NCBI GenBank assembly: GCA_965178125.1
Contig: OZ237737.1
Coordinates: forward strand, 372,001-436,000
Direction: 5' to 3'
From: Bilabrum cf. latius
Lineage: Eukaryota
DNA: 64,000 bases
Translations under genes and position numbers: made by a program
Notes under the pieces: model-generated
Database searches by the model: none
Seen by the model: only the letters and a program-made list of their open reading frames with translations
Told to the model about the DNA's origin: nothing
Shown: one piece after another, positions 3,284-41,573 of the stretch
Layout: every line of letters starts with the position of its first letter
Numbering within the stretch: position 1 is the first letter of the stretch

Positions 3284-3663
3284 TGATGGTTGGTAATGTG
3301 GATCTGTCGATCAACCGCTCAATGCTTCGCTCCCCCAGCACTCTCCCTCTCCCGCCACGCGCCACTCGTGCGCCGCTACCCACCGTCGCCCACTCGTCTG
3401 TCGCTAGCACGGCCGTCTCCGTGCCGCCTAGGCCCGGCTGGCCGCTTTGTCCTGCCCTCAGCTTCCACTCTCGTACCTAGTACCTGCTCCTCGTAATCTC
3501 CTCCTTCCGTGGCGCTTTGGTTTTGGCTGGTGCTTCCCCGGGCACTGGGCAGGCGGCACGGACCTTTCAAGCCGCTATGGGGACTACCTGCCACTGGCCA
3601 CGGGATCTACACTGGGCCCCCCTTTTGGCTGTTCGCCCATCGAACGCCGCAAGGAACACCCAC
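3284..3663. repeat. Split direct repeat B2 (380 bp), copy of 5103-5482
   Basis: tgatggttggtaatgtgg...aaggaacacccac occurs twice with offset 1819; no mismatch noticed. Confidence 0.95.
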
Positions 3664-4947
3664 GCCGCCCCGACCTAGGGGACGCCACCACGCAAAAAGA
3701 AGAAAAAATCTTGAACTCGATCGAGTTAGGGCATCACCGCTCGCACATCCCGCCCAGCCCACCACGCTCGACACGGTCCTGTATGCTCACCGCAGCCCCA
3801 GCACAGTCGTCACCCGGTCCGCTCCTATTCAGGCTCCCATTGCCTTACCCTCTGTGAGGATACGGGGTCCGGCTGCTGTCCGCACGTTGCCGTGCCTCTT
3901 GCAGCACCACAGTGGTCCTCCACTGCAGCGTACGCTGTGCAGGATCTCGCCTCGCTCTCTCGGTGGGTGTCGCCGGTGCGACTGTCCCAGGGTCGATCCG
4001 AGATTCAGGCTCTCCTCTCGGCTGTGCAGGTCACTCTGACCCCCTTCGGCCACGGAGCCATCCAAAGGACAGAAGTTTCCTGGGCCCGCAACGCGGTTCT
4101 TTGTGCTTCCAGAAAAACAGAGGTGCTCCACATGGGGGATTTTACGGCACGGACCACACCTCTGCTCCCAGTCTCATGACCACCTCACGCGTGGCCACCT
4201 CACACCCGTCCCCACTGTTGCAACCGGGAGGGTGGGTTGCTTCCGACCTATAGCCGGATTTACAGCGATCAACATGAGGCACGGACCTCATACTGACCGC
4301 ACCCACCCCTACTCCCACGCCTACTTGACTCAGCCAAGTCCCTGGCCCCCCAAGCCACCCACCAACGGTCCTGCTAACAGTGGCCATCGGCACCAGATGC
4401 GACCACGGAGCCTCATCTGGTTGGTGAAATGGGATGGTGGCAAAGGCCACCACCAGTTCATCCACGTGTTCTAGATGGCTAGACGCACGCAGCTTCCCTG
4501 GCCCCGTTCCGTTGCCCTCCGCAACGCTTAAATGTTGGTAGCTAGGTATGAGTGTTGGTACCCTCCGAATCTGCGTCGCCATCCTGCGTGGGTGCCACGT
4601 GGTCCCCCCGTTGTCAGGGGGTCCACATGAACAGAAAAGAGGGCTGGTTCATGCTGGTACTGAGTGCGGAGGGAGGAGGAGCGGTCTGCCTCCGCCCCCC
4701 TCCCAAGAGAATATTACACACACTACCTGGCAGCAGTGACACACACACACTTACCCGCCCCTAAGACGCCCTGTCTCGCTGAGTAAACCTTATCCGCCTG
4801 GCACCCCTCCCTTCAGCTGTAGGCCCCTCTGTTGTCCGCCAACTACTGGTCCCCCCTCACCTCCCGGCCTCCGCCGCGATGCCGCCCCATCCATATCCGA
4901 AGGAAATGGGGCCAACAAGACAAGAAACAATTCCATAAAAAGTAAAA

Positions 4948-5102
4948 ATTATTTCCTTTATCTTCTTCTGAATTCCCCTAAGTGAGAGCGCTGGTCTCGC
5001 TCAGCTCGTACTCGGAATTGATCCGATCAGTATACCACTATCGGCCCAAACATCACTGTACATGGATGCTCTGTATTCGTCAGTAGGGGTGCCATTGAAT
5101 CA
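4948..5102. repeat. Split direct repeat A2 (155 bp), copy of 11466-11620
   Basis: attatttcctttatcttc...gccattgaatca occurs twice with offset 6518. It directly abuts B1. Confidence 0.95.
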
Positions 5103-5482
5103 TGATGGTTGGTAATGTGGATCTGTCGATCAACCGCTCAATGCTTCGCTCCCCCAGCACTCTCCCTCTCCCGCCACGCGCCACTCGTGCGCCGCTACCC
5201 ACCGTCGCCCACTCGTCTGTCGCTAGCACGGCCGTCTCCGTGCCGCCTAGGCCCGGCTGGCCGCTTTGTCCTGCCCTCAGCTTCCACTCTCGTACCTAGT
5301 ACCTGCTCCTCGTAATCTCCTCCTTCCGTGGCGCTTTGGTTTTGGCTGGTGCTTCCCCGGGCACTGGGCAGGCGGCACGGACCTTTCAAGCCGCTATGGG
5401 GACTACCTGCCACTGGCCACGGGATCTACACTGGGCCCCCCTTTTGGCTGTTCGCCCATCGAACGCCGCAAGGAACACCCAC
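5103..5482. repeat. Split direct repeat B1 (380 bp)
   Basis: Matches 3284-3663 and starts 8 nt after the YR stop codon. Confidence 0.95.
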
Positions 5483-5490
5483 TGGCCCAG

Positions 5491-6729
5491 TTAGAGCCCT
5501 GAATCCCGTTCACCCCCACCACTGCTCACTGGGCTCCGGTGAAGCTCCCTGCGTTGGGATTCCCAAATCTTCAGAAGTTCTGGGATGGAGCCAGCTCCCA
5601 CCATAGCCCGAAGAATCCCACTCCTCGTAACCCTTGCCGCTTCCATCAATGAGTAACGATCATACACCGCTGGCATGTTGGGCAGAGACCACCCAGCCTG
5701 GCCGTGCACGTACTTCTCGTCCTTGGTTGGGTCCGTCTGGCGCAATGCTGACACTCCCGCACTCTTGAAGGCGTACACACCCTCCCCCTTGCGGTGCACA
5801 GGAATCCCTTGCGCTGTTATCCACTGCAGCGTGGCACTGTGCGCAGCCCGTGTTCGAGAGGCGAATACTTCCCCGCGCTGCCCTTGTGTTGGCTACCGAA
5901 CTGATACCCACCACTTCAGCCACCGATACGGGCACAACTCCTCGAATCCATCCGGCAAGCATGGAATGACCGCTGGCGGGCGCTGCTCGGGGTTGCCGCC
6001 GAGCACCCGCGACTTGTACCGCTGCCACCCAATCAGTGCCACGGGAACAACCTCGTTGTCATCAGACGCTGCAGTCCACTCTATCTCCCCTATTGCCAGA
6101 TGCACCAGATCTGGCCACCGGGCCAAGCCACAGAATGTCCCCACATAGCAGCACATAAATGTATCGAGAACCGCTGGTGTTGAGTTGTAGTCCGCACGGG
6201 CCAGCGCAGCTGGGCCTTGCCACATCGAATCCCACTCTGCCTGCAGCTACCAGGCCATCATCACTAGTGCTCGCAACGTTACAGGGTTGTCCACCAGGAC
6301 ACGTAGGGCACGTACCGCGTCCGGATCCGTCGCCCCGGCACATCTACGCTTGTAGCCGAGCAGGGCCAGTTTGACCTGCCTGTACTCCACGTCTGCGAGT
6401 GGGGTACGCGGGAACTCCGCTGACCTGAACCACGCCGTTTGCGCTTGGAACAATCGCAACACTGTGGCATACTTCAACCCGGCGGCGCACTACTCCGTCA
6501 GCAAAGCCCACATGGCCTCCACCGGATCCCCGACCTCAAGTTCCGCCTGCATGGTCAGATTCCGCCTGCGCGCGTCCAGAGCTCCCTTGCCGAGCTGCTG
6601 ACTCTCCTACAGCATCAGGGTCCTAGTCGCCGCCACCGCTGCTCGCCGTTGTGCCGCAGCACTTGAGCCTGCTCGTCCAGTCACTGGGATCAGCTCCCCA
6701 AATGGTCCTGCGAAGATGAAATGGTGCAT
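5491..6729 (-). CDS. Retroelement tyrosine recombinase (ORF3), overlapping the end of ORF2
   Basis: Four same-frame fragments joined by TAG at 6607, 6490, 6247 and 5893. GLARWPDL (catalytic Arg box), YAFKSAG, GW..MPAVY (catalytic Tyr). Ends in TAA. Start codon is uncertain. Confidence 0.82.
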
Positions 6730-8926
6730 GAAAAGTTGAGTCAGATGTCGCCCTTGCCGCCGAGACAAACCCCGTTTTGCCCACGCGCTGCCCCGCCGTC
6801 TACACCAGTTGACCAGCACCGTCCTCCACCCTGCTCAATCTATCGCATGCCACCATGATCGGTGTACTTCGCCTCTACCACACGGGGAAGATAACGTATC
6901 CCAAGTTCTCAGCCAGCCTTCCAATCTCTCGCAGCTCATCTCGCTACCCAGCCTTCATCGAGCCGCCCTTCCGCAGCAAATTTGGCAGGGCTTGATTGTC
7001 TGACAGCACGAAGAGCGCCTCTGGGCAAGTCTGGCTCCTCGCCAACTAGCCTGGTCCTGACAAAAAAGCTCGTAGTGATGCTAGTTCGCGTGCCGTACTG
7101 GATAGTAACTGCATGTCCTCGTGGAAACCCATTTGCATCAAGCCAGAATCACCATTGCCTCGGCGCCACATTGCACCCAGCCCATGGGCTGACGCGTCAG
7201 CACAAAACACGGATGCTCTCCCCTCCGGCAACGGGTATATCGGTGCAGCTGCTGCCGCTGTCAAGATACCGCGGTCCCTACATGTCAGCCACCACTCAAA
7301 TTCCTCGTTGAACTCTGCCGTCCAGATGTGCCTACCACCTTTGCGAGCCTTTGCAGCCGCCTAGTATATCGCAAACACGTGCTGCGAAGCGTGGGGGATT
7401 ACTGCCGCAGCCGCGCCCAACTGTCCTGCCAGTTTCTCCACAGCCTTGACCGCCAGCGCACTCGTTGCTAGCATGTTGAAAGCTCGCATTCGCTCAACGG
7501 TCCTCAGCACTGCGTGGATCCGTGGCCATCGATCCGAGCGCAGTGTCACCTTCAAGTGGGCTCCCAGGGTAATCTTTAGCCCAAGGAACTCAATCACCTA
7601 TGTTGGAAAGGTAAGTTTGCTAGGCTATATCCTCATGCCAATCCCCCGCGCTACAAGCACGGCACACCACAACAACTACATAGTGCGGGCCTCCGTACGT
7701 GCTGACAGAAAGCCATCATCAATGTACCCAAAAGCCCAATGTGCGGTGCGCAGTCGCACCCCCGCTAGACACTCTGCCAACACTACTGATGCGACAAAAC
7801 AGCCCATTCTGCAACCAAACGACAAGACCACAAACTAAAACATGCTGCCACCCACTCCGCGAACTGCCATCCATCGCTGCAGCCCCGGTGCCAGCGCTAT
7901 ACTATGATATGCCGCCTTGAAATCGAAGGCTGCCCCCCATTCGTGCCTGTCACGTCCCACGCGCTCTGCTAAATGCCGAGCAAAATCACCATACCGGAAA
8001 CGCAAGTCAAGAAATGCCTCGTTCGCGCCCGAGCGCTTCATATCCGTGACTAGGCGCTGCTTGCCAGTCGTGTCCTCCCGCTGCACCAAGCGTGGTGTCT
8101 GACCCTCCCGCTGCTGTACCTCGATTGCGGTCCTCTTGGCAACGAACATAGGCGTCACCTAGACCGCGGCGCCCTCCACCGGTCGAATCTTGCCTGCACT
8201 CGCTGCTGCTTCCACGAACGGGACTACATCCTCCTCGTCCGCCGGCAAGTCCTTCGGGTCAGCCCGTACCGGCTGCGCCCCCAACACCTTCAAGACTGCC
8301 TCCGCCCGAAGCCCATGTCGTGCCAGTCCAACAAACCCCCGGCCCGCTACACAATCGGGCTCCACTGCGCCCCGCGCCCCGCAGCGTCGACAACGAGCCA
8401 AATGTGCCTGCCATGCTCCACGAGGTGACAGCGTACACGGCTAGCGTGCTGCCCATCGCTCCCCCTGCTGCAGTTCGCCCCTACGCTCCCAGTGTGACAA
8501 CGTTCCATACCAGACGTCCAAAGCAGATGATGGTGCCTAGCCCGGTGGGAATGACCGCAAGTCAATCTTGTCCCGCTTTGCCAGGCATCGTGCCCAAGCC
8601 TACCACATCCCGTCCGCACCCAATGCTGACGGCGCATCACCAGTCATCCCCGCTCCCGCATCACCGTCATTGTCCACAGAATAGCCGGCTGCTTCCATCT
8701 GCACCTCGTGCCATCGTCTCGAGGGGCCTGCAGATGCAACCTAGTCCAACAATTCGTCCGCGTGTTCCATGATGTCCGTCACAATGCACCGCCCATCCAG
8801 TGTCCGCAGGCTCGGCTCACCACGCTGTAGGGTCGGAGTCTTCTGCTGAGCCAGGATTTTTGCGCTGCTTCCGAAGATAGTGCACATGCCTACACTACTG
8901 CAGCCCTTCCCCTGGCTCGGGCCGCG
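6536..8926 (-). CDS. Retroelement reverse transcriptase / RNase H (ORF2)
   Basis: TPMFVAK, KQRLVTD, FDFKAAYHSI, F*FVVLSFG, YIDD, PT*VIEFLG, EWW, ADAS, SDNQ, DRLSR. About 15 in-frame TAGs and no TAA/TGA until the TGA at 6536. First ATG is at 8887. Confidence 0.92.
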
Positions 8927-11467
8927 TCACCCATTCCCCGCTAGTCGGCCACTTCGTCTTGGGGAGGTACGGTGCTCCGCCTACGTTTTGGGCCCCGATG
9001 TCGTCCCTTTTTGGCGCTCTGACTCCTGCTGCGACTCTTGTCCACCCGCACTCGCGCTACTGCTGCTGCTGCTGCTGCTGCTGGCCTTCGCTGACTACCG
9101 TTTTGCCGCTGCCCCCGCTCCTCCAGCTGCGGCCCCATGCTCCTTTGCCACCCGCTTCGCTCGCTCCAATGCTGACTTGTCTATCGCGGCTGTCACATCC
9201 TCCCACGCCATAGCGCTATGGTTGCCTGCCGGATTCAGTCCCAGTAATTCCCACGTGGGCCCCACCTGAGTCTGCGTCATCCGCAGCGGGGTCTCGTTCT
9301 CGCTCCGCAACTACCACAGTCGAAGCACCGCAGGAGTATCCATTCTCCCCACTGGTGCCACCCTATGTATCAAAATCATGCGCAGAGCAGTTGCTAACAC
9401 GAAATGCTGACCCGTATTGGCTGTGTCCCCGTTGCCTCCACCTGCCGTGCGGACTGCTGCCGCATGAAGGACCATCCCTAAGCCCAAGAACATTCTTCGC
9501 ACTGCAATCTCCAACGCCTCGTGAAGCTTGCTCATTACTGCCCTGGCTTCCGCATGCTTATCCTGGTGCAGCAGTGTCGCAAGTGTGATAACCACCTTCA
9601 GCAACGACGTGCTCCCTGCCACGACCCACTCGAGCGCCCCACACACCGATCTGGTCAATATCGTGGGTAATCGAAAAATGTTGCCTTGTTCCAGTTCTGC
9701 CACTCCCGACAACACGTGCTACCCGCACTTACTCGCAAATTGCCTGATCCCGTCCGGCATGAGCAAATCACCCGCCTCCTCCAGCACCGGTGCCACATGA
9801 AAGCTGCGGCCAGATCCTGACTCCCGGCGAAAACCAGCCGCACTCGCCATAGAAGCGAACATTATCTGCGCGGGGCGTTCAATCCGAAGTAACGAAATCT
9901 TTGCCTTGTCCGCACTCGTCAGCGCCACTGAGGCCAAGTCCTTAGCTCTCTCGCCTTCCTCCCCGAGTTCGGCCAAATACCGTGCACTGTCCCTAAATTG
10001 AAGCACCTCCTAAGACCGTACGGTGTCGTAGAACAAAGAGTCAACTCCCTTCGCCGTGGGAATGGAATTATGCACTTCCTTGGCGCCGTCTCCATCGTCT
10101 GCTCCGACCTGGCCCTGGTATGGTGACTTCTTGCAGGCGCCGGCTGACGACTTAATCGCCTGGGTGGAGTGCTCGGGCCGGGCATTTAACTCAAGCGCAA
10201 GGGCACGGAGCAACTACAACGTACCATTGGGCTCACCCGATGCCATGGCCGCAACCGCCTGTTGAATTCGCTTGTCGATCGCGTCACTCGCGGTCGCCTC
10301 TCCTGCTCCCGCGGATGCTCCCTCGACCTCTTGCTCGCGCCTTGCCGCCTTGGTGCGACGTTCCGAATCCGCCACAATGGCCTCCCAGGGAGCTTGTGCT
10401 TCCCCCACCTCTTCCGCTCTCCCCCTTTTTCCCAGCGTTGCGCCCGAGATGGTGCCCATCGACGCCTGCGCCCCAAACACCGCGCTGGCACCGCGGCTTG
10501 CCGTTGGACCTCCCGCTGGTTTGCCACCCGCCCCAGCATCGGCCGCAGTCACTCCACCATGGCTGAATCCGCCCCCAAAATCAAAGAGGCCCAGCTCGCT
10601 CGGCGGATGGCCTGAGGTAGCAGTCGCCCCTGCACCGGCCCCCCCGCTTGGGGCAGGCAGTTTCCACCCAAACCCGCCACCGTCCATGATGCCCCGGCCC
10701 AGTGAGTGCGCTCCCATCGGCCCCCCGGCTACACGTTCAGGCCTTGACCCCGTGAATGGTGCTGTTGTTGATGCCCCGGATGGTACCGGGATCACCGGTG
10801 CTCCCCAGAGTGGGAGCACCCCATTGCTGCCCGTCGCATCTTGGTCTGAGTTTCCACCCGTCGCCGCGCTCGCCGACGAACTGCTGCATGTTGGCTTCGG
10901 CATCGCATGGATCAGCATGTTGGGCAACAGAGCATCGAACATTTCGTCGAGGAAGGGGATCGTCCACGGTGCCACCCGGGCATAGCCGAACAGGGCCGCA
11001 CGTGCTGCCCACGCTGCCTGCTGTGGCGTTACACCACTCTGTAGTGGTTGCTGCAGGCATTTCCAGAGCTCACCATGGTCCTCGGGCATCAGATCGTCCT
11101 TTGAGAACCCTGCTGCCACTTCCAGAGCGCCACGCAGGCCCGATTCCACGTCTGGCGTCGTGGTCGGTTTGAACACGCCCATAACGGCAGCCCCTGCGCC
11201 CAGGGAAGCGACCGGCGTGTGGCCGCGTACGCAGCTGCCCAACAGAGCCCGCTGCGCATCTGCCCCTTCTTTGTTTAGCATGTTCACAGCCTCGCGTACG
11301 ACAGGCTCCGAGAAGCTCGACATGTGTTCAACAGCCATACCTTGAAACACATCGAAAACACCACCCACAGCGTTCACCCTCCGCCTCACCGTTGGGGCCA
11401 TACGAGTGGTCATTCGCGCCACGATCGCCCGGCTTTGCTTCCATTGCGCACTCTGCTGGCTGAGCAT
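8927..11467 (-). CDS. Retroelement ORF1 (putative Gag-like), 846 aa
   Basis: ATG at the boundary of repeat A1. Fragments are joined by TAG at 10214, 10010, 9719, 9311, 9095 and 8981. Ends TGA. The Gag assignment is positional only. Confidence 0.75.
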
Positions 11468-11620
11468 TATTTCCTTTATCTTCTTCTGAATTCCCCTAAG
11501 TGAGAGCGCTGGTCTCGCTCAGCTCGTACTCGGAATTGATCCGATCAGTATACCACTATCGGCCCAAACATCACTGTACATGGATGCTCTGTATTCGTCA
11601 GTAGGGGTGCCATTGAATCA
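11466..11620. repeat. Split direct repeat A1 (155 bp), the 5' terminus of the element
   Basis: Matches 4948-5102. Confidence 0.95.
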
Positions 11621-13870: not shown

Positions 13871-14096
13871 GTCGTGGTCACCGGTCAGGAAGTGGATTTA
13901 GACTCAGATGCACGTCAATCCGAGCAGACTCCAGCGATAAATGCTTTCTCTATCCACCGATGCTTGTTGCCGCGTTTGAGTGGGAAGATTCGGTGTCTAC
14001 GCGCTGCTGCCCAAAGATCCATTGCCGAGGGCAAGATGACGAGCGAGCGGCAACAACATAACAAACTTGCAAGAAGTCCGAGTGCGCTCGGGTAGA

Positions 14097-17000
14097 ATGC
14101 GCACCAAGAAACGTAGTGCATGTATGCTCACTTCATCGTTTGGTAGGCCATATCAGCGCTCTCACCCGAGAACGACAGGGCTTGTTGCAGCAGTTGCATT
14201 TGCGTCCATGCTGCACGGGTCAACCACTAGCCTTACCATCTTTGACTAGAGGAAGGAAGGCAAGCTTTCTGAATCGTGGAAATCAACATGCTTGGCCCGC
14301 GTACTGCCTAGAGTCCATTCGACAGCCCTCCGAGCCATAGCGCACGACACGTTCAAATCAATCAGAACACAGGGCCTTAGCTTCAGCCAACAGATTGATT
14401 TTGAGAGTCTGCAACAATTCACTGAATCCTGGGCAAGTATTTCAGCAAACAGATCCGGTCAACCAGTTTCTGAATCGCCTGGGCTCGCAATGCTTGAGAA
14501 TTGCCTCGCGGCGCTTCCAGCTGCGGGAGGAGCGCAAGGCCCCAGGCTCTGGGACATCAATGGTGCAGGCCACCCGTCTGTGCAAGGCTTTTCAACACTT
14601 GCTAGTGCAGAGCCGGGGCACGAGATTGGCTTTAAAGTTCGCATTCGGCGCCAGCTGGACCCCGGGCTTTGGCACGGCGGCAGCGCCACGCCGACCCGAG
14701 GCGTGCCTGCTGCTAGCGGTGGCACCCGCAGCAGCATGAGCGCTGATTCCATGAGCGGCAGTGACAGCTCTAGCCTCTAGTCGCCGGGGTTGAGGATGGA
14801 CGTGTACAGGATGGGGTACTACGGCGGCAGGGGCGCAAGGCTCGTGGCCAGTGCGCGGGCGACTGCAAGTGCAGTGAAGCAGGCAGAATCTCAGCCGAAT
14901 TGCCGCAGGGAAGACAGCACGCTGCTCGTCGATTGCGGGAACTGGCACTAGACATTCACGTGGCGGGTGCCAGCGTATGCCGCGAGCGGTTTGTACGTCG
15001 CACGTTTTGTGAGGACCGTGCGACGCACACCTGTGCAGGATTCCCCAACCACGAGAGGCCCCAAGGCAGCAGGTTCCGCGGCCACTGGCGATTCCCTCGA
15101 TAGCCTGCGCACCTGGCGAGTGGATGCTGCGGCAGGCCCCTTGAACCCTCAATTCGCGAACCTGGACTGGGACTACAACCAGGCGCCGCCGTGCGGGTCG
15201 ACGCCCGCAGCGGAGTGCCTGCTGCGCGGCATGAGGAACGCGGGCGGGGCCAGGGACACAGCGCTCGGCAGGCATGCGGAGGAAAGCCAGGGAACTGTGC
15301 GGGGCGGTATGTCTGTGGAGCATCTCGTCGAACCCGTGGCATCCCACGCGTATTTCGTGGTGAGGGAGCCGCCTAGCTGGGCCGCCGCTCGAGCTAGACT
15401 GCAGGGGCTCGGTGCATCTGACGCTTCGTGGACTGCCGATGGTGGCAACCAGACCGAATGTGGCACTGATGGTAGAATCGATGAATCGTGTGGCAGTATC
15501 AACGACCCCAAGCGGGAGATGATGATCAGAGACGAGTTCCTACGAGCGACTGAGCCGTCGAACGTGCTGGCGCAGCTCAGCGATGTCACCTGGCGGGCCT
15601 ACAACTACTACGCCGGTCCGAATGCCTATGGCATGCGTCCACACGAGAGGCACAGGTGGTACAGTGTGCCAGGCAGTAGCGGTGCACCCGAGTGTGATGA
15701 AGTGCACGCCCAGAATGGCACCTCATCCGCTCGAATGAACGGTGCACCCGACCAATTTCCAGCGACGGATTGCCCCCCCGCCGCGTTCCAGGACGCTAGC
15801 AGGCGAGCTCACAAGATGTCGCTAAACACACCTCTTGTTGTCAGGGACCTACGCGGTATCAACGCCCCCTTTGGCGCAGACTATCCCGCTATACGCTGGC
15901 TCGAGAGATCGGGCTATTCAGTGGCATATTGGAGCGGTGTCGACACGCACTGCAGGGGCAGGCAGCTTGTCGGGGTGCAGAGACAATCAGCGCAGAGCGC
16001 TTACGGGAGTCATGTTACCGTGCAGCCGCCTCAATACTCTGTATTTCTCAGCCTTGGCCACGATGAGTACTGGAGCGAAAGACAGAGGCGCTGGGTGGAG
16101 CAGGCGCGTGATGGCGCAGGGATGGGCGTGCAAATGTGGTCCGGGAACGAGGTGTACTGGCGGGTGAGGTGGGAGGCAGGCACTGCGGGGCAGTACTCGT
16201 CGGCACAGGCAGGCTGCGACAGCTTGGACGTGAGGGATGGTCCGAGGTGGGCCTGTCCTTGCGAACCAACTGGATTGACAGGCAGCCGCCGCAGCCATGT
16301 TCGTGAAAGCACTGCAGAATCCAGCGACGCCCTCGCGTGCGGGATTCAGAGCATGCAGCCGCCCGCACCCGACGATCTGGGCGCTCACAGAGGCATGCCG
16401 CTCGACATCATGGCCAGTAGTACAAGTGCAGGCGCGCCCAACTCTGCGGGACGATGGTACCACACCAATGCTCTGTACGGCGCAAAGGAACGCCCTGCTT
16501 CGGCGAAAGGGGTGCTTTCAATGGAAGAGATGTGCAACCCGCGCACGTTGGTCGTGTTTAAGGAAACAGCTGCGCTGTCTAGGCTAGACGGAGCGGCACC
16601 TGCTTAGCCGCTGCTGAGCTCGTCAGCGTTGCCATCCGAAGCTGAGGCCGGTGCTGTGAATGTCCCACGTTCCGAGCAGCACTATGGTTGGACCGGTACT
16701 TTTCGGGACGACTCGTAGCACAGACACGAGGCACAGCACAATGATACAAAAGAACCTGCTGCTTTAGAACGTATTCCCGTGGATTCAAAGCCGGGTCAGA
16801 TTGGAGGGTCGGTCTGGATGGAAGGTGATCCGGCCCGCCCAGAGCAGTCGCTGACCGGGCAGAGCTGGAGAGTGAATGCCTACCGCAACGACCACCTGGA
16901 GCTAGGTGCAGCTGACGCAAAGCTAGCTTTCTGGAATGGGAGTGACGTTCAGCTTGGACTGAGGCGTGCCTGCTCTCGGCAAGAAGGCTCCCAAGAGGAC

Positions 17001-18557
17001 CACGGCAAGCAGAAGATGATCTGCCAGCTCGCTGGCGTTCTTAGCAAGGGACTGCTGGGCCACGAATGGGACGTGGACGAGGACCGCCCGGCGAGGCCAT
17101 CGGGCATCGTTAGGCTTTCTAGAACCACGGTGCACTCTGTCCTCGGGCTCACCGATAACGGGGCCACGTTTGACACGCAGAGTGCCACGCACCACCTTGT
17201 CATGTACAGGGCAAGGGGGCCTCCATGGATGTGCCAAGTGCTACTGGACTAGTTACAGCAGCAGGGGTAGACGCCCGAGACAGGGTCTGACAGAGGCACC
17301 CGTCGCCCCGGCTTGAACTACACTGGCGTGCTGGACGTCAGCGCGTGGACTGAGAGGTGCTCGCGCTTCATGCCAGCTCTAGCCCATGCAGCTGCGGCCA
17401 GCTCGGAGCCGGATCAAGGCGCCTTGGTGTTTGGAGCTGGCACGGTGCAGTACTCCTGGGGCCTTTCTGCAGTCCACGATCGACCTACGGGTGCTCCAAC
17501 ATTCGCTGAGTCTGATGTGAACGCCAGGATCGGGGTCGATCAGGACGGGGCGGATCCGTCGATCCAGGCACTGACGCAAAACACGCTGAGAATGCAGGGC
17601 GTGACTCCATGGGGAGCTCCTCCGGCGAGTCCGCTCAGCGCATACCAACCACTCGAAAGCGGTGGATCTATGAGGCCTTTTTCTCGCGTGATAGCAGTGG
17701 GAATCTACGCCAGCTTGGAGGGTAGATCTGGCGCCAGGCTGGCACCTGCTGCACTGGAGTATTCGTCTCGGAGCAGCATTCCTACAGCAGCCGAGCTGCT
17801 GCAGGTAGCGCGACGCAGCGAAGTGCGCGCTGTTGCCTTAGCATCAGCGAGAGCCGGCGGAGTCGCGCCGGATACCGAGCAAGATGCACCCCAGGTGGCT
17901 GGTCTAGACGTGTCACTGGACGGCGGCAGCCGCTGGCATGGCGCCGACCGACTGGACAATATGCTGAGCAGCACCATGTTTGGCATCGCAAGCAAGTGTG
18001 CCGTGCGCGAGCTCGCATCCTCGGCCACGTCCTTGCACCCTGCTACCGGTCAGCGGCGCCGCGATGTGCATGGTTCTGCCCATCATCTGGAACGCATGTG
18101 CCGGAACACGACGTGGCTCGCTCACTGGGCGCAAGCACAGTCCTTGCCTACAAATATTTCCGGGGAGGACAGTCTGTGGGTGGTGGAGCTGAGCGCTGCT
18201 GAGCTCGCCATGGATCTGCTCGAGATGGAGGACCTTGAGATGAGGTGGGCGGCTGCACGCGGAGAGCGGCGGGTCTAGAGCTCGAGCAATGCCAATAAGG
18301 GTATGCATTCTGGCAGCTACGAGCGATTCAACAGCGGTCGAGACATGTTGAGAACAGTCTTGCAGCGCACAATCCTACAGGACGGCCAGGTCGGCTAGCT
18401 CAAAGGTGATGCTGCGACAGGCACAGAAGAACGGATGCTTGAGACAGGGCGGCCCATTGTTGGTCCAGAGAGCGCATTCCGTAGCAACAGTGTCCTGCTT
18501 GCTGCGAGATCCAGGGCGGTGGACGACCGAATGACGGAGGAGTCGGTGACCCCATGA
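14097..18557 (+). CDS. Intronless ~1480-aa N,N-dimethylformamidase beta-subunit-like (DUF6605-type) protein
   Basis: One frame with 9 TAGs (14247, 14778, 14949, 16605, 16716, 17250, 17268, 18276, 18396). Motifs DVYRMGYYGGRGARLV, VDCGNW, TWRAYNYY, GHDEYWS, SGNEVYWRVR, WTGTFRD, LGHEWD, GALVFGAGTVQYSWGL, VSLDGG, RSRAVDD. Start is 14097 or 14124. Confidence 0.85.
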
Positions 18558-25381: not shown

Positions 25382-26047
25382 CCGTATGAATGACCCAGGA
25401 GACCCAGTTCGTTTCGCCTCTTGAGAAGATGCCAGGACGAAATCAATTGGCGGGAGATAGGCCTACTTCAAATGTTATTCGTTGCTATCAAAGCTTCGAG
25501 CTCACTACTAGGACTGAGGTGTGCAGTGGTCGCATGCAGTGCTGTGGTCGATAATGCGGAGCTAATATTCTGCTCTTCTACAGCTCTAGCAGATGATGTA
25601 CGAATGGTCAAATGCTAATTTGAACCAAACCATGAAGTAAGTGTGCTGGAATGGCCAGGGTGGAGGCCTTCAAAAGCGGCAAGCCAGTGCATGGAGCACG
25701 GCAGTTGCAGCTGGTAGGCGGATCGCAGCAGCCATGGTGAATAGACATTATCCGTTGCATCCCTTCCCAGTCTTCTGCGCACCCTTGATGTGCTATCTTG
25801 ATTCCTGGGACCACCGCTGGGAACGCAAGCCACGCACATCATCAGTGGAGATAACCACATGCCCGGCTGGCGTGGGGGCTGACGTGCCGTTTCAATAGCG
25901 GCAATCCGAAACAGTTGCGCCATGCCACCAATCCATGTTATCGGTGTTACCCCGATGGCTATCCATTAAGACGCTTCGGTTGGGACACAGAGCGGTGCAG
26001 GCCTGGTCCCACACCGAGCAGGTGCTCCTTCAAGTTGCTCCTTCAAC

Positions 26048-27583
26048 TTATCTCAGCCCGAGGCCCATGCATCCTTGCAAGAAGAAATCCAGGGCGCGAG
26101 CAAATGCTGCGGAGGCAAGAGAAATAGAAGTTAGCGAAAGTTACGGCTGGATTAGAACAGCTGGTACACAGAGGCAGCCCGAGCCGAGCACTGGCACAGT
26201 CAACCAATAAAGCCGCGCAATACTCACATACTGGCCGTTCTGAGATAGACAGAGACCCGCCCTGCAGGTGCATTGCTTCCGTCCTGCTGCAGGCCCTGTG
26301 CAGATGGTGAAACAGCGTCTCCCTCGGCTATCCCTGCATCCCAGCGATTCTCTGCAACGCCCCAACGCTCAGACGGAGCACTTCGCCGCCCGTGTCTGCG
26401 CAGTTGGCCACGAGAGTAGCGACGCACCGCTTAGCATTTTCCCTCACCTTTGCCATATCGACCGCGTCTCGCTGCAGCCAGGACTCGATCAGGCGACGAA
26501 CGTTCCCTTCGGGCACGTCGGCAAGCGCAGCCTCGGCCGCCCTGCGCACGTGCTCTGCCGACGACCCGCTGGACATCTACGAGGTCACAAGCGCGCTGCG
26601 GGTGCTGGCAGAGCACGGGCTGCCCCCCGAGGACATGGTCATGAGCCTGGGCTGCCACAGGAGCCACTCCCTTGTGCTCGCCTCATCGCCCGTGGCGCCC
26701 ACGAGCACTTGCCCGTGCAAGAAAAACTTTTTCTTTGCGATCATGCGGAGGGAAATGTTGGCCCCCAGCCCCAGTCCCATGCACAGGAGCACCGCCTTGG
26801 TGCCGAGCTGCTGCAGCACGTCGAGCACCCCGTCAGTAATCCGGTCAATGCTCGGGTATTTGCCCTGCTCCTTCTCGTTCCAGAGAGGAGCCCCTGCGTG
26901 CTAGCCTGGAAGATCAACCATGAGTACCCTGGCGTTCCGCAAGACGGGGTGGCCCCTCAGTGATCGAAGCATGGCACTGAAGGCCATCCTGCAAGGCGTG
27001 CCAATGTCTGGAAGCAGCACAATGGTAACTTTGCCGCCCTTCTCTCCGGCAGTTGTCACAAGGAGCGGTCCAGCAGCCTTTGTAATCATGATCTCAGAGC
27101 CCACAATGTTAGCTTCAACGACCTTTGCCTGCACTTTCGCAACCGCACGCTCTCCATCTGATTTCGGCGATGAAGCATCTCCCCTGGGATCATCGTCGCG
27201 GACCGCAGCCGTCTGCGGCTAACCTTTGCCTTCATTTGTGTCTTCTCCTGCAAACCCGGTCTCATCTGCAAACTCAACGGCATCCATGCGTTGCTGGGCT
27301 TCAATGGCCTTCTCGTGGCGACGTGTCATCTTTGAGACGACTGGTCCCTGAACAGGCTTCTGCGGGTTTATGAGATGGCTTCTACACAATATACTTATGA
27401 GTCGGCCAACCTTTGCAATCGCATCGCAGGCATCGCGGAGCCCGAGTTGAAACACGTGGACAAGCGACCTACCTCGAATGAAACAAACACCAACCAGGCT
27501 ATCACTGCAATGACGCACAACCCCGCAGCAGCAGTGATAGCAGGTAGTGATAATGCACTGCTAATGACTCGTCCGATCCCCAT
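26048..27583 (-). CDS. NDRG/Ndr-like alpha/beta-hydrolase-fold protein with N-terminal membrane anchor, 3 exons (27583-27473, 27359-26228, 26106-26048)
   Basis: LLPDIG, VDLPG*HAGAP (family DAPGQ), YPSID, GLGLGANI, and C-terminal ERPVSFARALDFFLQG. Ends in TAA. Confidence 0.8.
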
Positions 27584-33800: not shown

Positions 33801-35579
33801 TACAGGCCACGGGTGCACGTGTGGGACGCGCACTCCGGCGCGGGCTTGTGCGTGCTCCCCGTCGTGCACGGGAGCGCCGTCACTCGGCTCAGCTTCTCGG
33901 CCGACGGGAAGTCCCTCTTCTCAGCGGACGATGGGGAACCCTACACCGTCGCCATGTATTCCACGGGCTCGGGCGCATGGACCGATGGCGCGTTGCGGGC
34001 GCAGGGAACGGGGGAGCGGAAGCGGTGCTTCTTCGTGCAGGCGCTGCCCGGTGCTGACTCTAGTGCTCCGAGCGCAGCAGGCAGCGACGAAGAGTTTGTC
34101 GCGGCTACGGGCGGCAAGAACCACGTGAGGTTCTGGAGAAGGGAGGGCCGCACGCTCGAGTGCGTGAGAGGTCTCTTCGGCTCCAAGGGACGGATCCAGA
34201 GCGTGCTGTCGGCCGCCGTGGTGCGCGGCAGCCTCGTCACTGGGACGGCCAGCGGGCACCTCTACCGGTGGAAAGGAAGGGTGGTCGAGAACGCGACGCC
34301 CACGAGCGACGGTGGCAACAAGCTGCGGTCGGTGTACTGGATCGATGCACGCGGCGCTGCCGTGGTGCTGGGCCTGCGAGACGGTACGGTGAGGGTCTTC
34401 GACGCCGACCTCAAGCCGCACGACACGATCAAGCTGGATGATGCCCAGGAGAAATCGATGGACAGTGCAGTGCACGCCGTGCAGCTGCGCAGCGACGGCG
34501 AGGTGCTGCTGGCGGTGACTCGCGGCAGCGAGATCTACGAGGTGGCGCTGGCCACTGGGACGGTCACTCTCAGGGCGGAAGGGCACAGCGCCGACGAGCT
34601 CTGGGGACTCGCCGCGCACCCCTCGGCCCCGGAGCTGGCTCTGACAGCCGGTGACGACGGCAGCGTGCGCCTGTGGGACCTGCGGACTCACCGCGCGGCT
34701 CGCAAGGCCGTGCTGGAGGGCATGGCGAGAACGGTGTCATGGTCACCGGACGGGACCGTGGTGGCCGTTGGGCTGGGTGGGAGGATCGGTGGCAGGAACA
34801 CGAGGTGGAAGACGCTCGCGCCGGCAACGACGGGAGGCGGCGCCGGCATGAGCCGGCAGGAAGCAGCCAGTGCGGCGGGTGCCTCTGGGTCGAGCGCAGG
34901 CCGCGACGGTGTGTTTTCGCTGCTGCGGGCCGACACTCTCGAGGCTGTACACGAGGCAAGGGACACGACCCGTCCGCTCACCGCGCTCAAGTTCAGCGCG
35001 TCGGGGCAGCTCCTGGTGGCGGGGTCTCGGGATGGCAAGGTGTACGTGTACGACGCCAGGGGAGGCAGGTTTGCGCTGAGCCGAACGCTGTCCCGCCACG
35101 TCAGCGCGGTGACACACGTTGACGTCAGCATCGACGGGTCGCTCGTAAGGTCCCAGTCCACTAGCTACGAGCTCCTGTTTGGCCGCACCGACCAGGAGGG
35201 TGAAGTGGGCCGCGCCGAGGAGGTGCGTGACACGGCCTGGCACACCGAGACGCTGCCTATTGGATGGGCCCAGATGGGGGTCTGGCCTCCAAGCGCGGAC
35301 GGGACGGACATCAATGCCGTGGACAGGTCCCGTTCGGGGCAGCTGCTCGCGTCGGCGGACGATTTCGGAGGCGTGAAGCTGTACCGGTATCCCGCCTGCC
35401 CGCCGGGCACCGAGGGAGGTAGGTGGCGGCAGGCCTACTTCAAGAGGTACCACGGCCATGCTTCGCACGTAACCTGCGCTCGCTTCACTGCGGGTGATAA
35501 GTACTTGCTCACGACGGGCGGCGCGGATCGCACCCTCCTGCAGTGGCGGGTGATCGGGAATGACAGCATGTTGTAGTGA
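27855..35579 (+). CDS. EF-hand + EML5/6-like (three HELP/WD40 TAPE modules) microtubule-associated protein, about 2574 aa
   Basis: EF loops DTDNNGLVD, DFDESGELS, DKDADHRIT. HELP motifs LEYVHGY, LEWVHGY, LEWAYG. Many WD40 repeats. One frame with TAG at 28518, 28857, 28878, 29232 and 35574; TGA at 35577. Confidence 0.92.
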
Positions 35580-35962: not shown

Positions 35963-37777
35963 TCATTCAGTCTGGTACACCACGTCCTTGATCGGCTCGA
36001 TCGAAGGGCCCACCTCCTCGCTCCCGAGCTCAAAGGTGATGGAAGCGGCCTTGGAGTCGAAGCTGTCGGGCGTAGAGAGACGCACGGTGTGCTTGCCGTC
36101 TTGCCCCCTGCCCAGCGGAAAGCTAAAGTAGGCCACCTTGGTCCCGCGGCCGAGCCCGATCGCCGACATCATGCCCTGGGAGTACACCTCGAAGGTGAGG
36201 GTCGCCACCTCTGGCACGCGCAGTTCGAGCGTCTTGCTGTTGTCCTTGAAGGTGGCCACACCGTGCTTAACCGAGGCTTTCGGGGACTTCCACTTGGTCT
36301 TGTCCTTGGGGCACCCGTGCAGCCGTGCCTGCAGCTGGGTCTTCTTGACCTTGCTGCCGAGCGAGTCGAGGCCGTGCAGTGCCAGGATCCTGACCGTCCG
36401 CTTGCTCTTCACCGCGAGGTTCTCGCCCTTGAAGGAGAAGCCCTCCAGCATCTTGCTCGAGTCCAGCAGGTGCTTGGGCTTGAGCTGGTAGCCCCCCGTT
36501 CCTAGGAAGAAGCCTTGGTTGGTCTGCACGGCCTTGGCGTTGGCCGACCGACCAAGTCGATGGTTCTAGCCATTCACAGCGACGACTTGAACCCCCTGGT
36601 GCCACTGCGGGGCCGGATCATCGTTGCCCGACAGGATTGCCCATCCAGGCGGGTACGAGCGCAAGAAGGCGAAAGTGTCGTATTTGACCATCTCAACCGA
36701 GTCTTTCGCGGCCATCTTGACCATCTTGTTGCTGTTGAAGGAGTGCGACACCGGGCGGTCCGGTAGTTCCCAGCTATCCTTCTTCTTCTTTTGGTTGGGG
36801 ATGGCAACCAGAGCCTTCAATTCTTCCACCATGGGTGGCTTGTCCTTATGCTTGCCGCTGTCGGTACCCGCTGCTGACTTCGCAGAGATGGTCTCGCCTC
36901 CCCTGAGGGCCTCATCGGATTCCTCCGTCTGCAACAGAAGCTCAATTTCTGCGTCTGTTATCTCTTTCTTGTCTGCCCCATCCACCTCGTCGTCGTTTTC
37001 GTCCTCGTTCTGCTTGTCCTTGCCCAGCTTCTCGAGGCGCTTTATGTCCTCGGGCGTGAGCTCGGCAGTGTCCTCGGTCCGCGCCGCTGCCAGCTCCTTC
37101 TCTTCTTCCGTCGGCTGAACCAGGTTGCCATCTTCTCCTGCGACAGGCAGAGGGACGCCCGGCTTGTCGCGGATCACCACCTTGCCCCTCAGCTCATCGG
37201 GGCTCGGGAACTGGCGGGGCCGCGGGTTCGGCGGAACGTACAGCATGTCGCCGAGCTCCGTCTTCAGGATCTCGGCCAGAGTCTTCTGTCCATCAGGGGA
37301 GCAGTGGTCCTCCAGAGTCAAGATCAGAGGGAGGTCAGAGTACCGCTCGTTTTCAGGGTTGAATGCCCACTGCTTGATCGCCTTGATCCCATCGATAAAC
37401 AGGAACTTCCCGGTAGGAGCTGGCCCATGCTTGACCTCAGGCCCGTCTGGTCCATCGTACACGTCGTACTCGATCACCTTGAAGCCCAGCCGCAGCAGTC
37501 GCTCAATCGCCCCTGTGCTAGTGGTGCCAACTAGCTAGTCTCCGTCCAGGTAAGAATTGTGCGACGACGAGACAAAGTAGTGGGACAGCGGATGAGTCAG
37601 ATCTTGTTCTACATTCGATGAGAGAAGGGTATCCAGATTCGGCTCTGGTGGAGTGCCATGAGCCTGGGCTGCTCCGCGGACCCCGGCGGCACTGAGCACC
37701 TTCTGCTGGGCCTCCTCGTGACGCGCTGATACGCAGAGTGCCGCAGAAATGGCCATCATGTATAATGCTGAAATCAT
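35963..37777 (-). CDS. Phosphoinositide-specific phospholipase C (X, Y and C2 domains), copy A, 604 aa
   Basis: YFVSSSHNSYLDGD*L, IEYDV, VKHG, LTLEDHC, SPDELRGK, LRSYP, GVQVVAVNG*, GGYQLKP, then C2. TAG at 37535 and 36566. Ends TGA. Confidence 0.93.
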
Positions 37778-38052
37778 TGTGTCCAGTCTAAGTGCGGTTT
37801 TCGGTCGATGCCGGGCTTTCCCCGAGCACGCTGGCTATTTTCGATCGGTGGATGCACTTAGCGGAACAATGCTTTTGCGCGGCGCCATGTGGTTTATGTG
37901 TGCCTGTTGCGAGTACTTTCACTACAAAGTCGAGAGCGGTGTATGAGTCGCTGTGCATCTTTCTGGGTGGCAGCCGTGTCCTGCCAGCAGGCCTGCGCAC
38001 AACTCAAGTAGACAGCACCACAGCAGGCAGCCTGCCGGTTAGACCTTGCCCA

Positions 38053-41000
38053 TCATTCAGTCTGGTACACCACGTCCTAGATCGGCTCGATCGAAGGGCC
38101 CACCTCCTCGCTCCCGAGCTCAAAGGTGATGGAAGCGGCCTTGGAGTCGAAGCTGTCGGGCGTAGAGAGACGCACGGTGTGCTTGCCGTCTTGCCCCCTG
38201 CCCAGCGGAAAGCTAAAGTAGGCCACCTTGGTCCCGCGGCCGAGCCCGATCGCCGACATCATGCCCTGGGAGTACACCTCGAAGGTGAGGGTCGCCACCT
38301 CTGGCACGCGCAGTTCGAGCGTCTTGCTGTTGTCCTTGAAGGTGGCCACACCGTGCTTAACCGATGCTTTCGGGGACTTCCACTTGGTCTTGTCCTTGGG
38401 ACATCCGTGCAGCCATGCCTGCAGCTGGGTCTTCTTGACCTTGCTGCCGAGCGAGTCGAGGCCGTGCAGTGCCAGGATCCTAACGGTCCGCTTGCTCCTC
38501 ACCGCGAGGTTCTCGCCCTTGAAGGAGAAGCCCTCCAGCATCTTGCTCGAGTCCAGCAGGTGCTCGGGCTTGAGCTGGTAGCCCCCCGTTCCTAGGAAGA
38601 AGCCCTGGTTGGTCTGCACGCCCTAGGCGTTGGCCGGGTGGCCAGTCCGGTAGTTCTGCGCGTTCATGGCTACGATCTGGATGCCGAGCAGCCACAGCTC
38701 CGCAGGGTCATAGTTGGCCGACCTGATCGCCAGGGCGTGAGGGTACACGCGCAATAGGTGTTCCCTTGCATACGCGATGATATCCACGGGGTTCTTCTAG
38801 GCCATCCTGATGATCTTCTTGTTGTTGAAGGAGTGCGACACAGGGCGGTCGCCCAGCTCCCAGCTATCCTTCTTCTTCTTTTGGTTGGGGATGGCAACCA
38901 GAGCCTTCAAATCTTCCTCCATGGGCGGCTTGTTCTTGTGCTTGCGGCTGTCGGCCTGAGTGGCCGACTCCACCGAGGTGCCAGCGGTTGCACTGCCCCT
39001 GAGTGCTCGGCTCTGCATCAGCGCCATGCTCGGTGGCGCTTCACTCGGTGGCGCATCGACGCTCAGCATTGGGATCTACTCATTGATCTTGCCCTCCATC
39101 TCGTCCTTGATCTTGCCCTCCACCTCATCCTCCTCTTCGGCCTTGATCTTGCCCTCCATCTCGTCCTCCACCTCATCCTCCATCTCGTCCTCCTCTTCGG
39201 CCTCCACCTCATCCTCCTCTTCGGCCTCCACCTCATCCTCCTCTTCGGCCTCCATCTTGCCCTTCATCTCGTCCTCCACCTCATCCTCCTCTTCGGCCTC
39301 GATCTTGCCCTCCATCTCGTCCTCCACCTCATCCTCCTCTTCGGTCTCGATCTTGCCCTCCATCTCGTCCTCCACCTCATCCTCCTCTTCGGCCTCCACC
39401 TCATCCTCCTCTTCGGCCTCCACCTCATCCTCCTCTTCGGCCTCCACCTCATCCTCCTCTTCATCATCCTCCTCTTCGGCCTCGATCTTGCCCTCCATCC
39501 CATCCTTCACCTCATCCTCCTCTTCGGCCTCCACCTCATCCTCCTCTTCGGCCTCGATCTTGCCCTCCATCTCGTCCTCCACCTCATCCTCCTCTTCGGC
39601 CTCGATCTTGCCCTCCATCTCGTCCTCCACCTCATCCTCCTCTTCGGCCTTGATCTTGCCCTTCATCTCGTCCTCCACCTCATCCTCCTCTTCGGCCTCC
39701 ACCTCATCCTCCTCTTCGGCCTCCAGCTTGCCCTCCTCTTCGGCCTTGATCTTGCCCTCCATCTCGTCCTCCACCTCATCCTCCTCTTCGGCCTTGATCT
39801 TGCCCTCCATCTCATCCTCCACCTCATCCTCCTCTTCGGCCTCCACCTCATCCTCCTCTTCGGCCTCCAGCTTGCCCTCCTCTTCGGCCTTGATCTTGCC
39901 CTCCATCTCGTCCTCCACCTCATCCTCCTCTTCGGCCTTGATCTTGCCCTCCATCTCATCCTCCACCTCGTCCTCCTCTTCGGCCTCCACCTCATCCTCC
40001 TCTTCGGCCTTCACCTCGTCCTCCTCTTCGGCCTCCACCTCGTCCTCCTCTTCGGCCTTGATCTTGCCCTCCATCTCGTCCTCCTCTTCGGCCTCCACCT
40101 CATCCTCCTCTTCGGCCTCCACCTCATCCTCCTCTTCGGCCTCCATCTTGCCCTCCATCTCGTCCTCCACCTCATCCTCCTCTTCGGCCTCCACCTCATC
40201 CTCCTCTTCGGCCTCCACCTCATCCTCCTCTTCGGCCTCCATCTTGCCCTCCTCTTCGGCCTTGATCTTGCCCTCCATCTCGTCCTCCACCTCATCCTCC
40301 TCTTCGGCCTCCACCTCATCCTCCTCTTCGGCCTCCACCTCATCCTCCTCTTCGGCCTCCACCTCATCCTCCTCTTCGGCCTCCACCTCATCCTCCTCTT
40401 CGGCCTCCACCTCATCCTCCTCTTCGGCCTCCACCTCATCCTCCTCTTCGGCCTTGATCTTGCCCTCCATCTCGTCCTCCATCTCATCCTCCTCTTCGGC
40501 CTTGATCTTGCCCTCCATCTCGTCCTCCACCTCATCCTCCTCTTCGGCCTTGATCTTGCCCTCCATCTCATCCTCCACCTCATCCTCCTCTTCGGCCTCC
40601 ACCTCATCCTCCTCTTCGGCCTTCACCTCGTCCTCCTCTTCGGCCTCCACCTCGTCCTCCTCTTCTTCCGTCGGCTGAACCAGGTTGCCATCTTCTCCTG
40701 CGACGGGCAGAGGGACGCCCGGCTTGTCGCGGATCACCACCTTGCCCCTCAGCTCATCGGGGCTCGGGAACTGGCGGGGCCGCGGGTTCGGCGGAACGTA
40801 CAGCATGTCGCCGAGCTCCGTCTTCAGGATCTCGGCCAGAGTCTTCTGTCCTTCAGGGGAGCAGTGGTCCTCCAGAGTCAAGATCAGAGGGAGGTCAGAG
40901 TACCGCTCGTTTTCAGGGTTGAATGCCCACTGCTTGATCGTCTTGATCCCATCGATAAACAGAAATTTTCCGGTAGGAGCTAGCCCATGCTTGACCTCAG

Positions 41001-41337
41001 GCCCGTCTGGTCCATCGTACACGTCGTACTCGATCACCTTGAAGCCCAGCCGCAGCAACCTCTCGATCGCCCCTGTGCTGGTGGTGCCCTTGAGTTGGCC
41101 TCCGTCCAGGTAAGAATTGTGCGACGACGAGACAAAGTAGTGGGACAGCGGTTGAGACAAATCTTGTTCTACATTCGATGGGAGAAGGGTATCCAGATTC
41201 GGCTCTGGTGGAGTGCCATGAGCCTGGGCTGCTCCGCGGACCCCGGCGGCACTGAGCACCTTCTGCTGGGCCTCCTCGCGACGCGCTGATACGCAGAGTG
41301 CCGCAGAAATGGCCATCATGTATAATGCTGAAATCAT
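38053..41337 (-). CDS. Phosphoinositide-specific phospholipase C, tandem copy B, with ~530-aa acidic repeat in the X-Y linker (1094 aa)
   Basis: Near-identical to copy A outside the linker. TAG at 39076, 38797, 38623 and 38077. Same C-terminus (DVVYQTE, TGA). Confidence 0.9.
39079..40669. repeat. Coding minisatellite of 24-bp (EEEDEVEA) units mixed with EDEMEGKIKA variants
   Basis: About 1.6 kb of ctcatcctcctcttcggcctccac / gatcttgccctccatctcgtc units, frame-preserving. Confidence 0.95.
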
Positions 41338-41573
41338 TGTGTCCAGGTAGTCAAAGTGCGGTTTTCGGTCGATGCCGGGCTTCTCCCGAGCACGAATCGC
41401 ACGCTGGCTCTCTGCCGTCTGCTTCCGTCGCTTTATTAAAAAATTAGCGGAACAATGCTTTTGCGCGGCGCCATGTGGTTTACGTATGCCTGTTGCGAGT
41501 ACTTTCATCACAAAGTCGGGGCTATCCATACTGAATCTGCTGGCGGGGGATCCGCGGCAACTCTGCATTCACG

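Follow-up and report, generated by a model that had tools for sequence, protein, structure and literature searches.

Genes and repeats of the locus

The window analysed here is a stretch of 64,000 nucleotides, about 60% GC, from an assembly (G000) of 48.6 Mb in 111 contigs. Its minus strand carries an NDRG-like gene whose frame closes with TAA (26048-26050, minus). The coding part of the last exon (26051-26106, minus), which ends FARALDFFLQGCMGLGLR directly before this TAA, is separated by a GT-AG intron of 121 nt (26107-26227, minus) from the main exon (26228-27359, minus). The main exon contains four in-frame TAG codons and matches both the Pfam family Ndr (E 1e-19) and human NDRG1. The intron is exactly absent from contigs of the public sequencing runs X1, X2, and X3, and the joint in a contig of X4 is nearly the same; these four runs come from three studies and presumably derive from RNA, and their contigs are spliced. 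The X1 contig shows no differing letter against 25631-26106 plus 26228-27359, and X2 likewise shows none over the main exon. Since the contigs skip the intron and match the exons, the TAA stands in frame with the Ndr exon, and the four TAG codons are unedited. One of them, in the context DLPG-TAG-HAG (26901-26903, minus), aligns with a Gln of the human NDRG1 segment DAPGQQ.

The first-pass annotation described this gene as ending FARALDFFLQGCMGLGLR-TAA close to the end of the family fold. The TAA is real and lies in the spliced frame; its nearness to the fold end is suggested by length, 96 residues following the aligned part compared with 82 in the NDRG1 construct, and a Pfam search with the last exon by itself gave no match. 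As proof that TAA terminates translation, however, the site is too weak, because an in-frame TGA follows after five sense codons (26030-26032, minus), and reading TAA as Gln would add just six residues. Run X4 carries indels 3' of the TAA, one of them over this backup TGA, in a single contig at depth 5, and they are given no weight here.

A retroelement spans 3284-11620, with split direct repeats A (11466-11620, identical to 4948-5102) and B (5103-5482, identical to 3284-3663) and about 1.3 kb between A2 and B2; we take this arrangement to be Ngaro-like. It has three overlapping ORFs in the host code with 25 TAG codons. The third (YR) ORF closes, as first annotated, with TAA (5491-5493, minus) 8 nt from the 380-nt repeat B1 (5103-5482), and the next in-frame TGA lies 34 codons on. 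A second copy, 99% identical and found elsewhere in the assembly (L130), has the same TAA; comparison among copies that are >99% identical gave no TAG exchanges. As the YR ORF matches no Pfam family, nothing fixes where it should end, and it too is weak evidence for a TAA stop. When 18 long frames of the window were translated, TGA closed 15 gene-like frames and TAA closed YR; the remaining two were a shadow frame on the antisense strand and NDRG read on without splicing. The annotated statement that some twenty further gene models end in TGA holds for these 15 among the 18 frames translated.

Two tandem PI-PLC paralogues (35963-41568, minus) are both terminated by TGA, and where one copy has TAG, its partner has CAG, CAA, AAG (at two positions), GCG, or an alignment gap. 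Neither shows an EF-hand or PH match in Pfam, and one has an acidic EEEDEVEA repeat of about 530 residues between the X and Y domains. An EML-like gene ends TAG-TGA (35574-35579, plus), which is ambiguous between Gln plus stop and a relic stop. A frame of 1,505 codons (14040-18557) contains a domain similar to the N,N-dimethylformamidase beta subunit (PF20254, E 4e-51), presumably a mainly bacterial family, and gene transfer is possible. The ORF at 56341-57555 recurs at >99% identity at two other loci (L132 and L147) and belongs to a multicopy element.

Placement of the organism

The best named match to the dynein gene chosen for placement is from Cafeteria roenbergensis, at 67%. A single-gene tree, computed in quick mode over the first 1,500 residues of 36 of 121 available rows, places the gene as sister to a group of Cafeteria and two environmental proteins with SH-aLRT support of 100, and on this tree we take the organism to be a bicosoecid stramenopile beside Cafeteria. 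A cox1 search was of little use for placement, as hardly any of its matches carried a name. The C. roenbergensis orthologue is present in NCBI as a full protein of 4,210 residues and has Gln at eight of 16 TAG positions; we assume that the Cafeteria nucleus uses the standard code. The assembly also contains a second 18S rRNA of 1,802 nt (L054, G000:C95:6099-7900), unlike the 1,700-nt array on contig C12. It looks, we presume, dinoflagellate-like, and probably comes from another eukaryote in the assembly. The mitochondrial genome (G000:C111, 38.4 kb, sampled as L050-L053) has TGA inside genes and a tRNA with a TCA anticodon (UGA=Trp), and ARAGORN calls only ten tRNA genes in it. For bicosoecids, C. 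roenbergensis included, PMC6723347 describes mitochondrial UGA=Trp together with a suppressor tRNA.

TAG at glutamine positions

Nineteen dynein frames, 56,518 codons in total, contain 2012 CAG, 360 CAA, 252 TAG, and no TAA, which bears out genome-wide the first observation that gene models required many in-frame TAGs and no TAA. Where 120 dynein homologues conserve a column to 80% or more, TAG falls on Gln in 21 of 39 cases, on Glu in seven, on Arg in four, on Leu in one, and on Tyr in none. Control codons at the same columns behave similarly: CAG meets Gln at 311 of 510 and CAA at 33 of 56, while GAG meets Glu at 502 of 708 and TAC meets Tyr at 380 of 520. The 18 of 39 conserved TAG columns that are not Gln therefore reflect a miss rate similar to that of CAG itself. 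In comparisons between paralogues, TAG stands opposite Gln in 15 of 23 dynein columns and opposite Tyr in none of the 23.

The pattern extends to other families. TAG occupies the invariant Gln of the DTAGQ motif in eight of 30 Ras-family loci, five of them inside one exon, and 65 Ras-family matches hold about 48 in-frame TAG codons. The eRF1 gene itself carries TAG at positions 44, which is Gln in most homologues, and 69; the GlnRS gene, which encodes an ordinary eukaryote-type enzyme, has none in 841 codons. Among the dyneins (L110-L128) TAG varies from 1 to 41 per roughly 3,000 codons and tracks the use of CAA, which is how a codon for Gln that is not preferred would behave. A public protein fragment of 96% identity stops exactly at a TAG position. 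Together, these alignments argue strongly that UAG encodes glutamine in nuclear genes, and glutamine would be the residue inserted into protein.

TAA and TGA as stops

Of the 19 dynein frames, 13 extend to the conserved C-terminus, where ten stop at TGA and three at TAA; five others run off the fetched piece, and the last meets a TGA in what is probably an intron. None is cut by a TAA. If TAA stood to TAG as CAA stands to CAG, about 45 internal TAA codons would be expected against the zero observed, and the two other frames of the same sequences contain 100 and 189. No TGA occurs inside the 13 complete frames, and the genes tested gave no sign of UGA read-through. The exchange of stops can be seen between paralogues, since dynein L114 ends LTQLDD-TAA where others end LSQLDD-TGA and LCQLND-TGA.

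A second set of exact ends comes from 30 Ras loci read by eye, 20 of which have a Cys prenylation motif directly before the stop (eight without a motif and two first exons were left out). The stop is TGA in 16 of these, TAA in four, after the motifs CVVS, CGC, GCC, and CMIL, and TAG in none. Over all 33 C-termini pinned by homology or by a prenylation motif, the counts are 26 TGA, seven TAA, and no TAG. The eRF1 gene also ends in TAA, and was kept outside this set because eRF1 C-termini vary. Readthrough past the eight TAA ends, eRF1 included, would add 177, 49, 47, 43, 37, 13, 5, and 0 residues. The claim that TAA still terminates thus holds at exact conserved ends, in three of 13 dyneins and four of 20 prenylated GTPases.

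Internal TAA at conserved Gln positions would speak against a TAA stop. None was found in the dyneins, and the sole TAA among the 65 Ras-family matches is intronic. For a wider sample we took 20 pieces of 20 kb spread over the genome (400 kb) and collected 104 TGA-bounded coding-like frames, which hold 647 TAG and 51 TAA codons; coding-like DNA lies on both sides of 260 of the TAGs and of just one TAA. This exception (L157:9444-9446), in a frame without a family match above the cut-off, counts against a TAA stop, though perhaps it belongs to a decayed element, possibly a transposon gene. A codon model trained only on the dyneins proved too strict for the same task, with one TAA scored. A rough count over 105 long frames translated under table 15, with some intronic ends included, gave 93 ending in TGA and 12 in TAA. 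TAA closes about 11-21% of genes, and UGA is the main stop, at about 80-90%.

TAG is not depleted toward the ends of dynein genes (3 of 1,300 codons near ends, 121 of 36,588 elsewhere). A search for an xDEL-stop pattern was uninformative, with 45 matches compared with 92 in the control and no TAA among them. Four of its ten TAG matches, of the form (K/H)DEL/F-TAG, were inspected; they lie in frames that do not look coding, and none is a gene end.

A candidate UAG-reading tRNA

A tRNA gene with the anticodon CTA lies at G000:C23:907607-907679. It scores 69.8 bits, second best of the 48 matches obtained with the Rfam tRNA model when 63 of 780 candidates were scored, and it is a single-copy gene with a normal cloverleaf fold and a T-run downstream. 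No tRNA with a UUA anticodon appeared among the 48 Rfam matches or in two pattern searches (24 and 53 matches), both of which recovered the CUA tRNA. The survey has gaps, as it found no nuclear tRNA-His, and an intron-bearing UUA tRNA could escape it. As set out in PMC5304391 and PMC11687900, a CUA anticodon pairs with UAG and not with UAA, and this restriction would explain the split between the two codons.

The acceptor, anticodon, and T stems of the CUA tRNA agree with those of the organism's own tRNA-Tyr at 26 of 34 positions, and with its two tRNA-Gln types at 18 and 12 of 34; the background across 37 other nuclear tRNA sequences has a mean of 13.5, an SD of 2.5, and a maximum of 18. Six of seven acceptor pairs are common to the CUA tRNA and tRNA-Tyr. 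The D stem (8/8) and G73, in turn, are as in the organism's own tRNA-Gln(UUG). Over positions 7-66 the best match among 50,697 records is a phage tRNA-Gln, at 81.7% identity (E 2e-7). By these comparisons, the CUA tRNA is a mosaic in which a Tyr-like acceptor stem is joined to a body of the Gln type. In our judgement of its ancestry, a remodelled tRNA-Tyr and a tRNA-Gln with a swapped or convergent acceptor stem deserve equal credence, each somewhat short of even, and some other origin is a good deal less likely.

Of the bacterial Gln identity set, as given in PMC9976931, the CUA tRNA has G73, G2-C71, G10, U35, and A37 and does not have U1-A72, G3-C70, G36, or U38. Judged by the eukaryotic Tyr set in the same source, it has lost A73 and G34 and kept C1-G72. 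The identity table of PMC9976931 lists no eukaryotic Gln set, the elements of which are not established. An amber variant of yeast tRNA-Tyr is recorded in PMC1483225 as accepting trace amounts of Gln from E. coli GlnRS. Given the identity elements held and lost, and this precedent, the CUA tRNA is likely to be charged with Gln.

The nuclear tRNA set has other peculiarities. Its two tRNA-Gln types (L013 and L041) are strongly unlike each other, and the acceptor stem of tRNA-Gln(CUG) has an A-A mismatch. The nuclear tRNA-Trp(CCA) (L252, G000:C40:415006-415057) has only four pairs in its anticodon stem, the base of which carries an A31-C39 mismatch.

The release factor eRF1

The eRF1 gene (G000:C35), with exons read by eye and residues numbered as in the human protein, retains GTS, E55, NIKS, S70, Y125, C127, F131, and T32. 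It differs from all of 116 homologues at S60V, L84Q, Y85F, E107Q, V110L, N111M, I112L, F114I, F117P, N129S, and K130H; the homologues are all at least 456 residues long, so that shorter typical eRF1 proteins and any from Cafeteria lie outside the set. Several of the changes adjoin the stop-reading motifs, namely S60V in TASNIKS and N129S/K130H in YxCxxxF, and a Gln encoded by TAG stands at position 69. From its sequence, the altered eRF1 would be expected to read UAG poorly while still reading UAA and UGA. The changes may instead be lineage drift, given that N129S is present in one metagenome eRF1. That instance was the only one in a metagenome scan of 79 loci with the eRF1 N domain, in which none exceeded 72%, none had S60V or K130H, and no recoded relative appeared. 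The first intron of the gene (L001:1166-1375), also read by eye, apparently starts with GC in place of GT.

The nuclear code and alternative readings

We consider it almost certain, from the combined gene comparisons, that the nuclear code is table 15, in which UAG is Gln, UGA the main stop, and UAA a minor stop; this is the pattern that the first-pass annotation favoured when it set table 6 aside, and the genome-wide data support it. In the mechanism that we propose, the CUA tRNA would pair with UAG only, C34 being unable to read A3, and would receive Gln from the ordinary GlnRS. The altered eRF1 (S60V, N129S/K130H, F114I/F117P, Gln at 69) would be weak on UAG and still active on UAA and UGA, and UAA would have remained a stop because no UUA tRNA arose.

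Were the code table 6, with UAR read as Gln, TAA would merely be rare in a GC-rich genome and TGA would be the sole stop. TAA is indeed rare overall, and a TGA lies within 0-5 codons of the TAA in NDRG and at two of the eight conserved TAA ends (L061 and L064). At five of those eight, however, the next TGA is 37-177 codons off, and translation onward would bury CC and CaaX motifs; with no TAA in 56,518 dynein codons where 45 are expected, and with no UUA tRNA found in Rfam or pattern searches (an incomplete survey), we give this reading only a very slight chance. A standard code, under which every TAG would be an error of assembly, part of a pseudogene or of a tiny intron, or an edited site, found nothing in its favour and is less credible again, to the point of being negligible. 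TAG-bearing exons agree letter by letter with spliced run contigs, TAGs occur in eRF1 and in all 19 dyneins with no frameshift, the public 96%-identical fragment ends at one of the TAG positions, and a cognate CUA tRNA is present.

UAG might also serve two ends, as Gln inside genes and as a stop at some termini, as in karyorelict ciliates. The TAG-TGA end of the EML-like gene fits such a scheme, as does the retention of GTS, E55, NIKS, and S70 in eRF1, and a TGA follows within 30 codons in about three of 28 cases for TAG as against two of 39 for CAA. Against it, TAG closes none of the 33 pinned C-termini, TAG is undepleted near dynein ends, albeit in a small sample, and the four (K/H)DEL/F-TAG matches lie in frames that look non-coding. 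The absence of TAG ends together with the absence of depletion makes dual use unlikely and limits any such share of gene ends to less than roughly 9%. In the context-dependent codes, tables 27, 28, and 31, the reassigned codon ends genes and is depleted near their ends, and neither is seen for TAG here. Distinctly improbable as well is a UAG that means another or a mixed amino acid, whether Tyr through the Tyr-like acceptor stem or Glu or Lys. Its appeal lies in the six of seven acceptor pairs that the CUA tRNA has in common with tRNA-Tyr, in the Glu at seven of 39 TAG columns, and in the two AAG codons opposite TAG in the PI-PLC paralogues. Tyr, though, is found at 0 of 39 and 0 of 23 TAG columns where TAC gives 380 of 520, TAG sits at the invariant Ras Gln, and G73 and C34 abolish two Tyr identity elements.

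Comparison with known codes

The codon table itself is already known; new here are the lineage that uses it, the predominance of UGA among the stops, and the mosaic make-up of the tRNA. The fornicate Iotanema spirale is described by Panek et al. (2017, PMC5304391) as using UAG=Gln with UAA and UGA as stops. It resembles our organism in its table and in the decoupling of UAA from UAG. According to the same account, UAA is its predominant stop, whereas here it is UGA; its CUA tRNA, to be derived from tRNA-Gln CUG, was no more than a prediction, whereas here the gene is present; and its eRF1 carries T32G, whereas here T32 is kept and other sites have changed.

UAG=Gln is likewise reported by McGowan et al. 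(2024, PMC11687900) for the phyllopharyngean ciliates Hartmannula sinica and Trochilia petrani and for Protocruzia tuzeti, where, as here, dual use of UAG is described as without evidence. By their figures these ciliates have 27-54% GC, in contrast to about 60% in this stramenopile, and UAA ends 86.9-98.3% of genes in five recoded phyllopharyngean genomes, against about 11-21% here. They report that a suppressor tRNA was not detected in the two phyllopharyngeans with UAG=Gln, whereas a CUA tRNA gene occurs here, and they attribute the retention of UAA as a stop to its being the predominant one. Other split codes covered there are UAG=Leu, UAG=Ser, and UAA=Lys with UAG=Glu, and users of table 6 include Tetrahymena, ulvophytes, hexamitids, Streblomastix, and Amoeboaphelidium (PMC11687900). 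Table 6 agrees with the present code in UAG=Gln and differs in that UAA, a stop here, is read as Gln there too, by a UUA tRNA.

The Discussion of PMC11687900 names no stramenopile, and our search of the open literature found no nuclear codon reassignment in stramenopiles. We lean modestly toward the view that the UAG=Gln code of this lineage is unreported. As a speculation that we think rather unlikely to hold in full, this would be the first non-standard nuclear code in stramenopiles, with a UAG reader derived from tRNA-Tyr(GUA) by G34C or from a Tyr/Gln recombinant and switched to Gln by A73G, by replacement of U2-A71 with G2-C71, and by a D arm of the Gln type; with UAA reduced to a minor stop, the lineage would then be a living halfway stage on the way from the standard code to UAR=Gln.

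Why UAA and UAG nearly always change together is an open question, and the split nuclear codes that bear on it are confined to a handful of protists, mostly hard to study. The present case adds an independent origin of a split code in another eukaryotic group, with a CUA tRNA that has no counterpart in the UAG=Gln cases as presented in PMC5304391 and PMC11687900. Annotation under the standard code truncates the proteins of this lineage, as in the one public fragment. The idea that UAA owes its retention to being the dominant stop is weakened, as no more than about one gene in every five to ten closes with it here. Since a near-complete genome and spliced contigs (three studies) are available alongside the candidate CUA tRNA and an eRF1 whose changes are defined, both the charging of the tRNA and the specificity of the release factor become directly testable.
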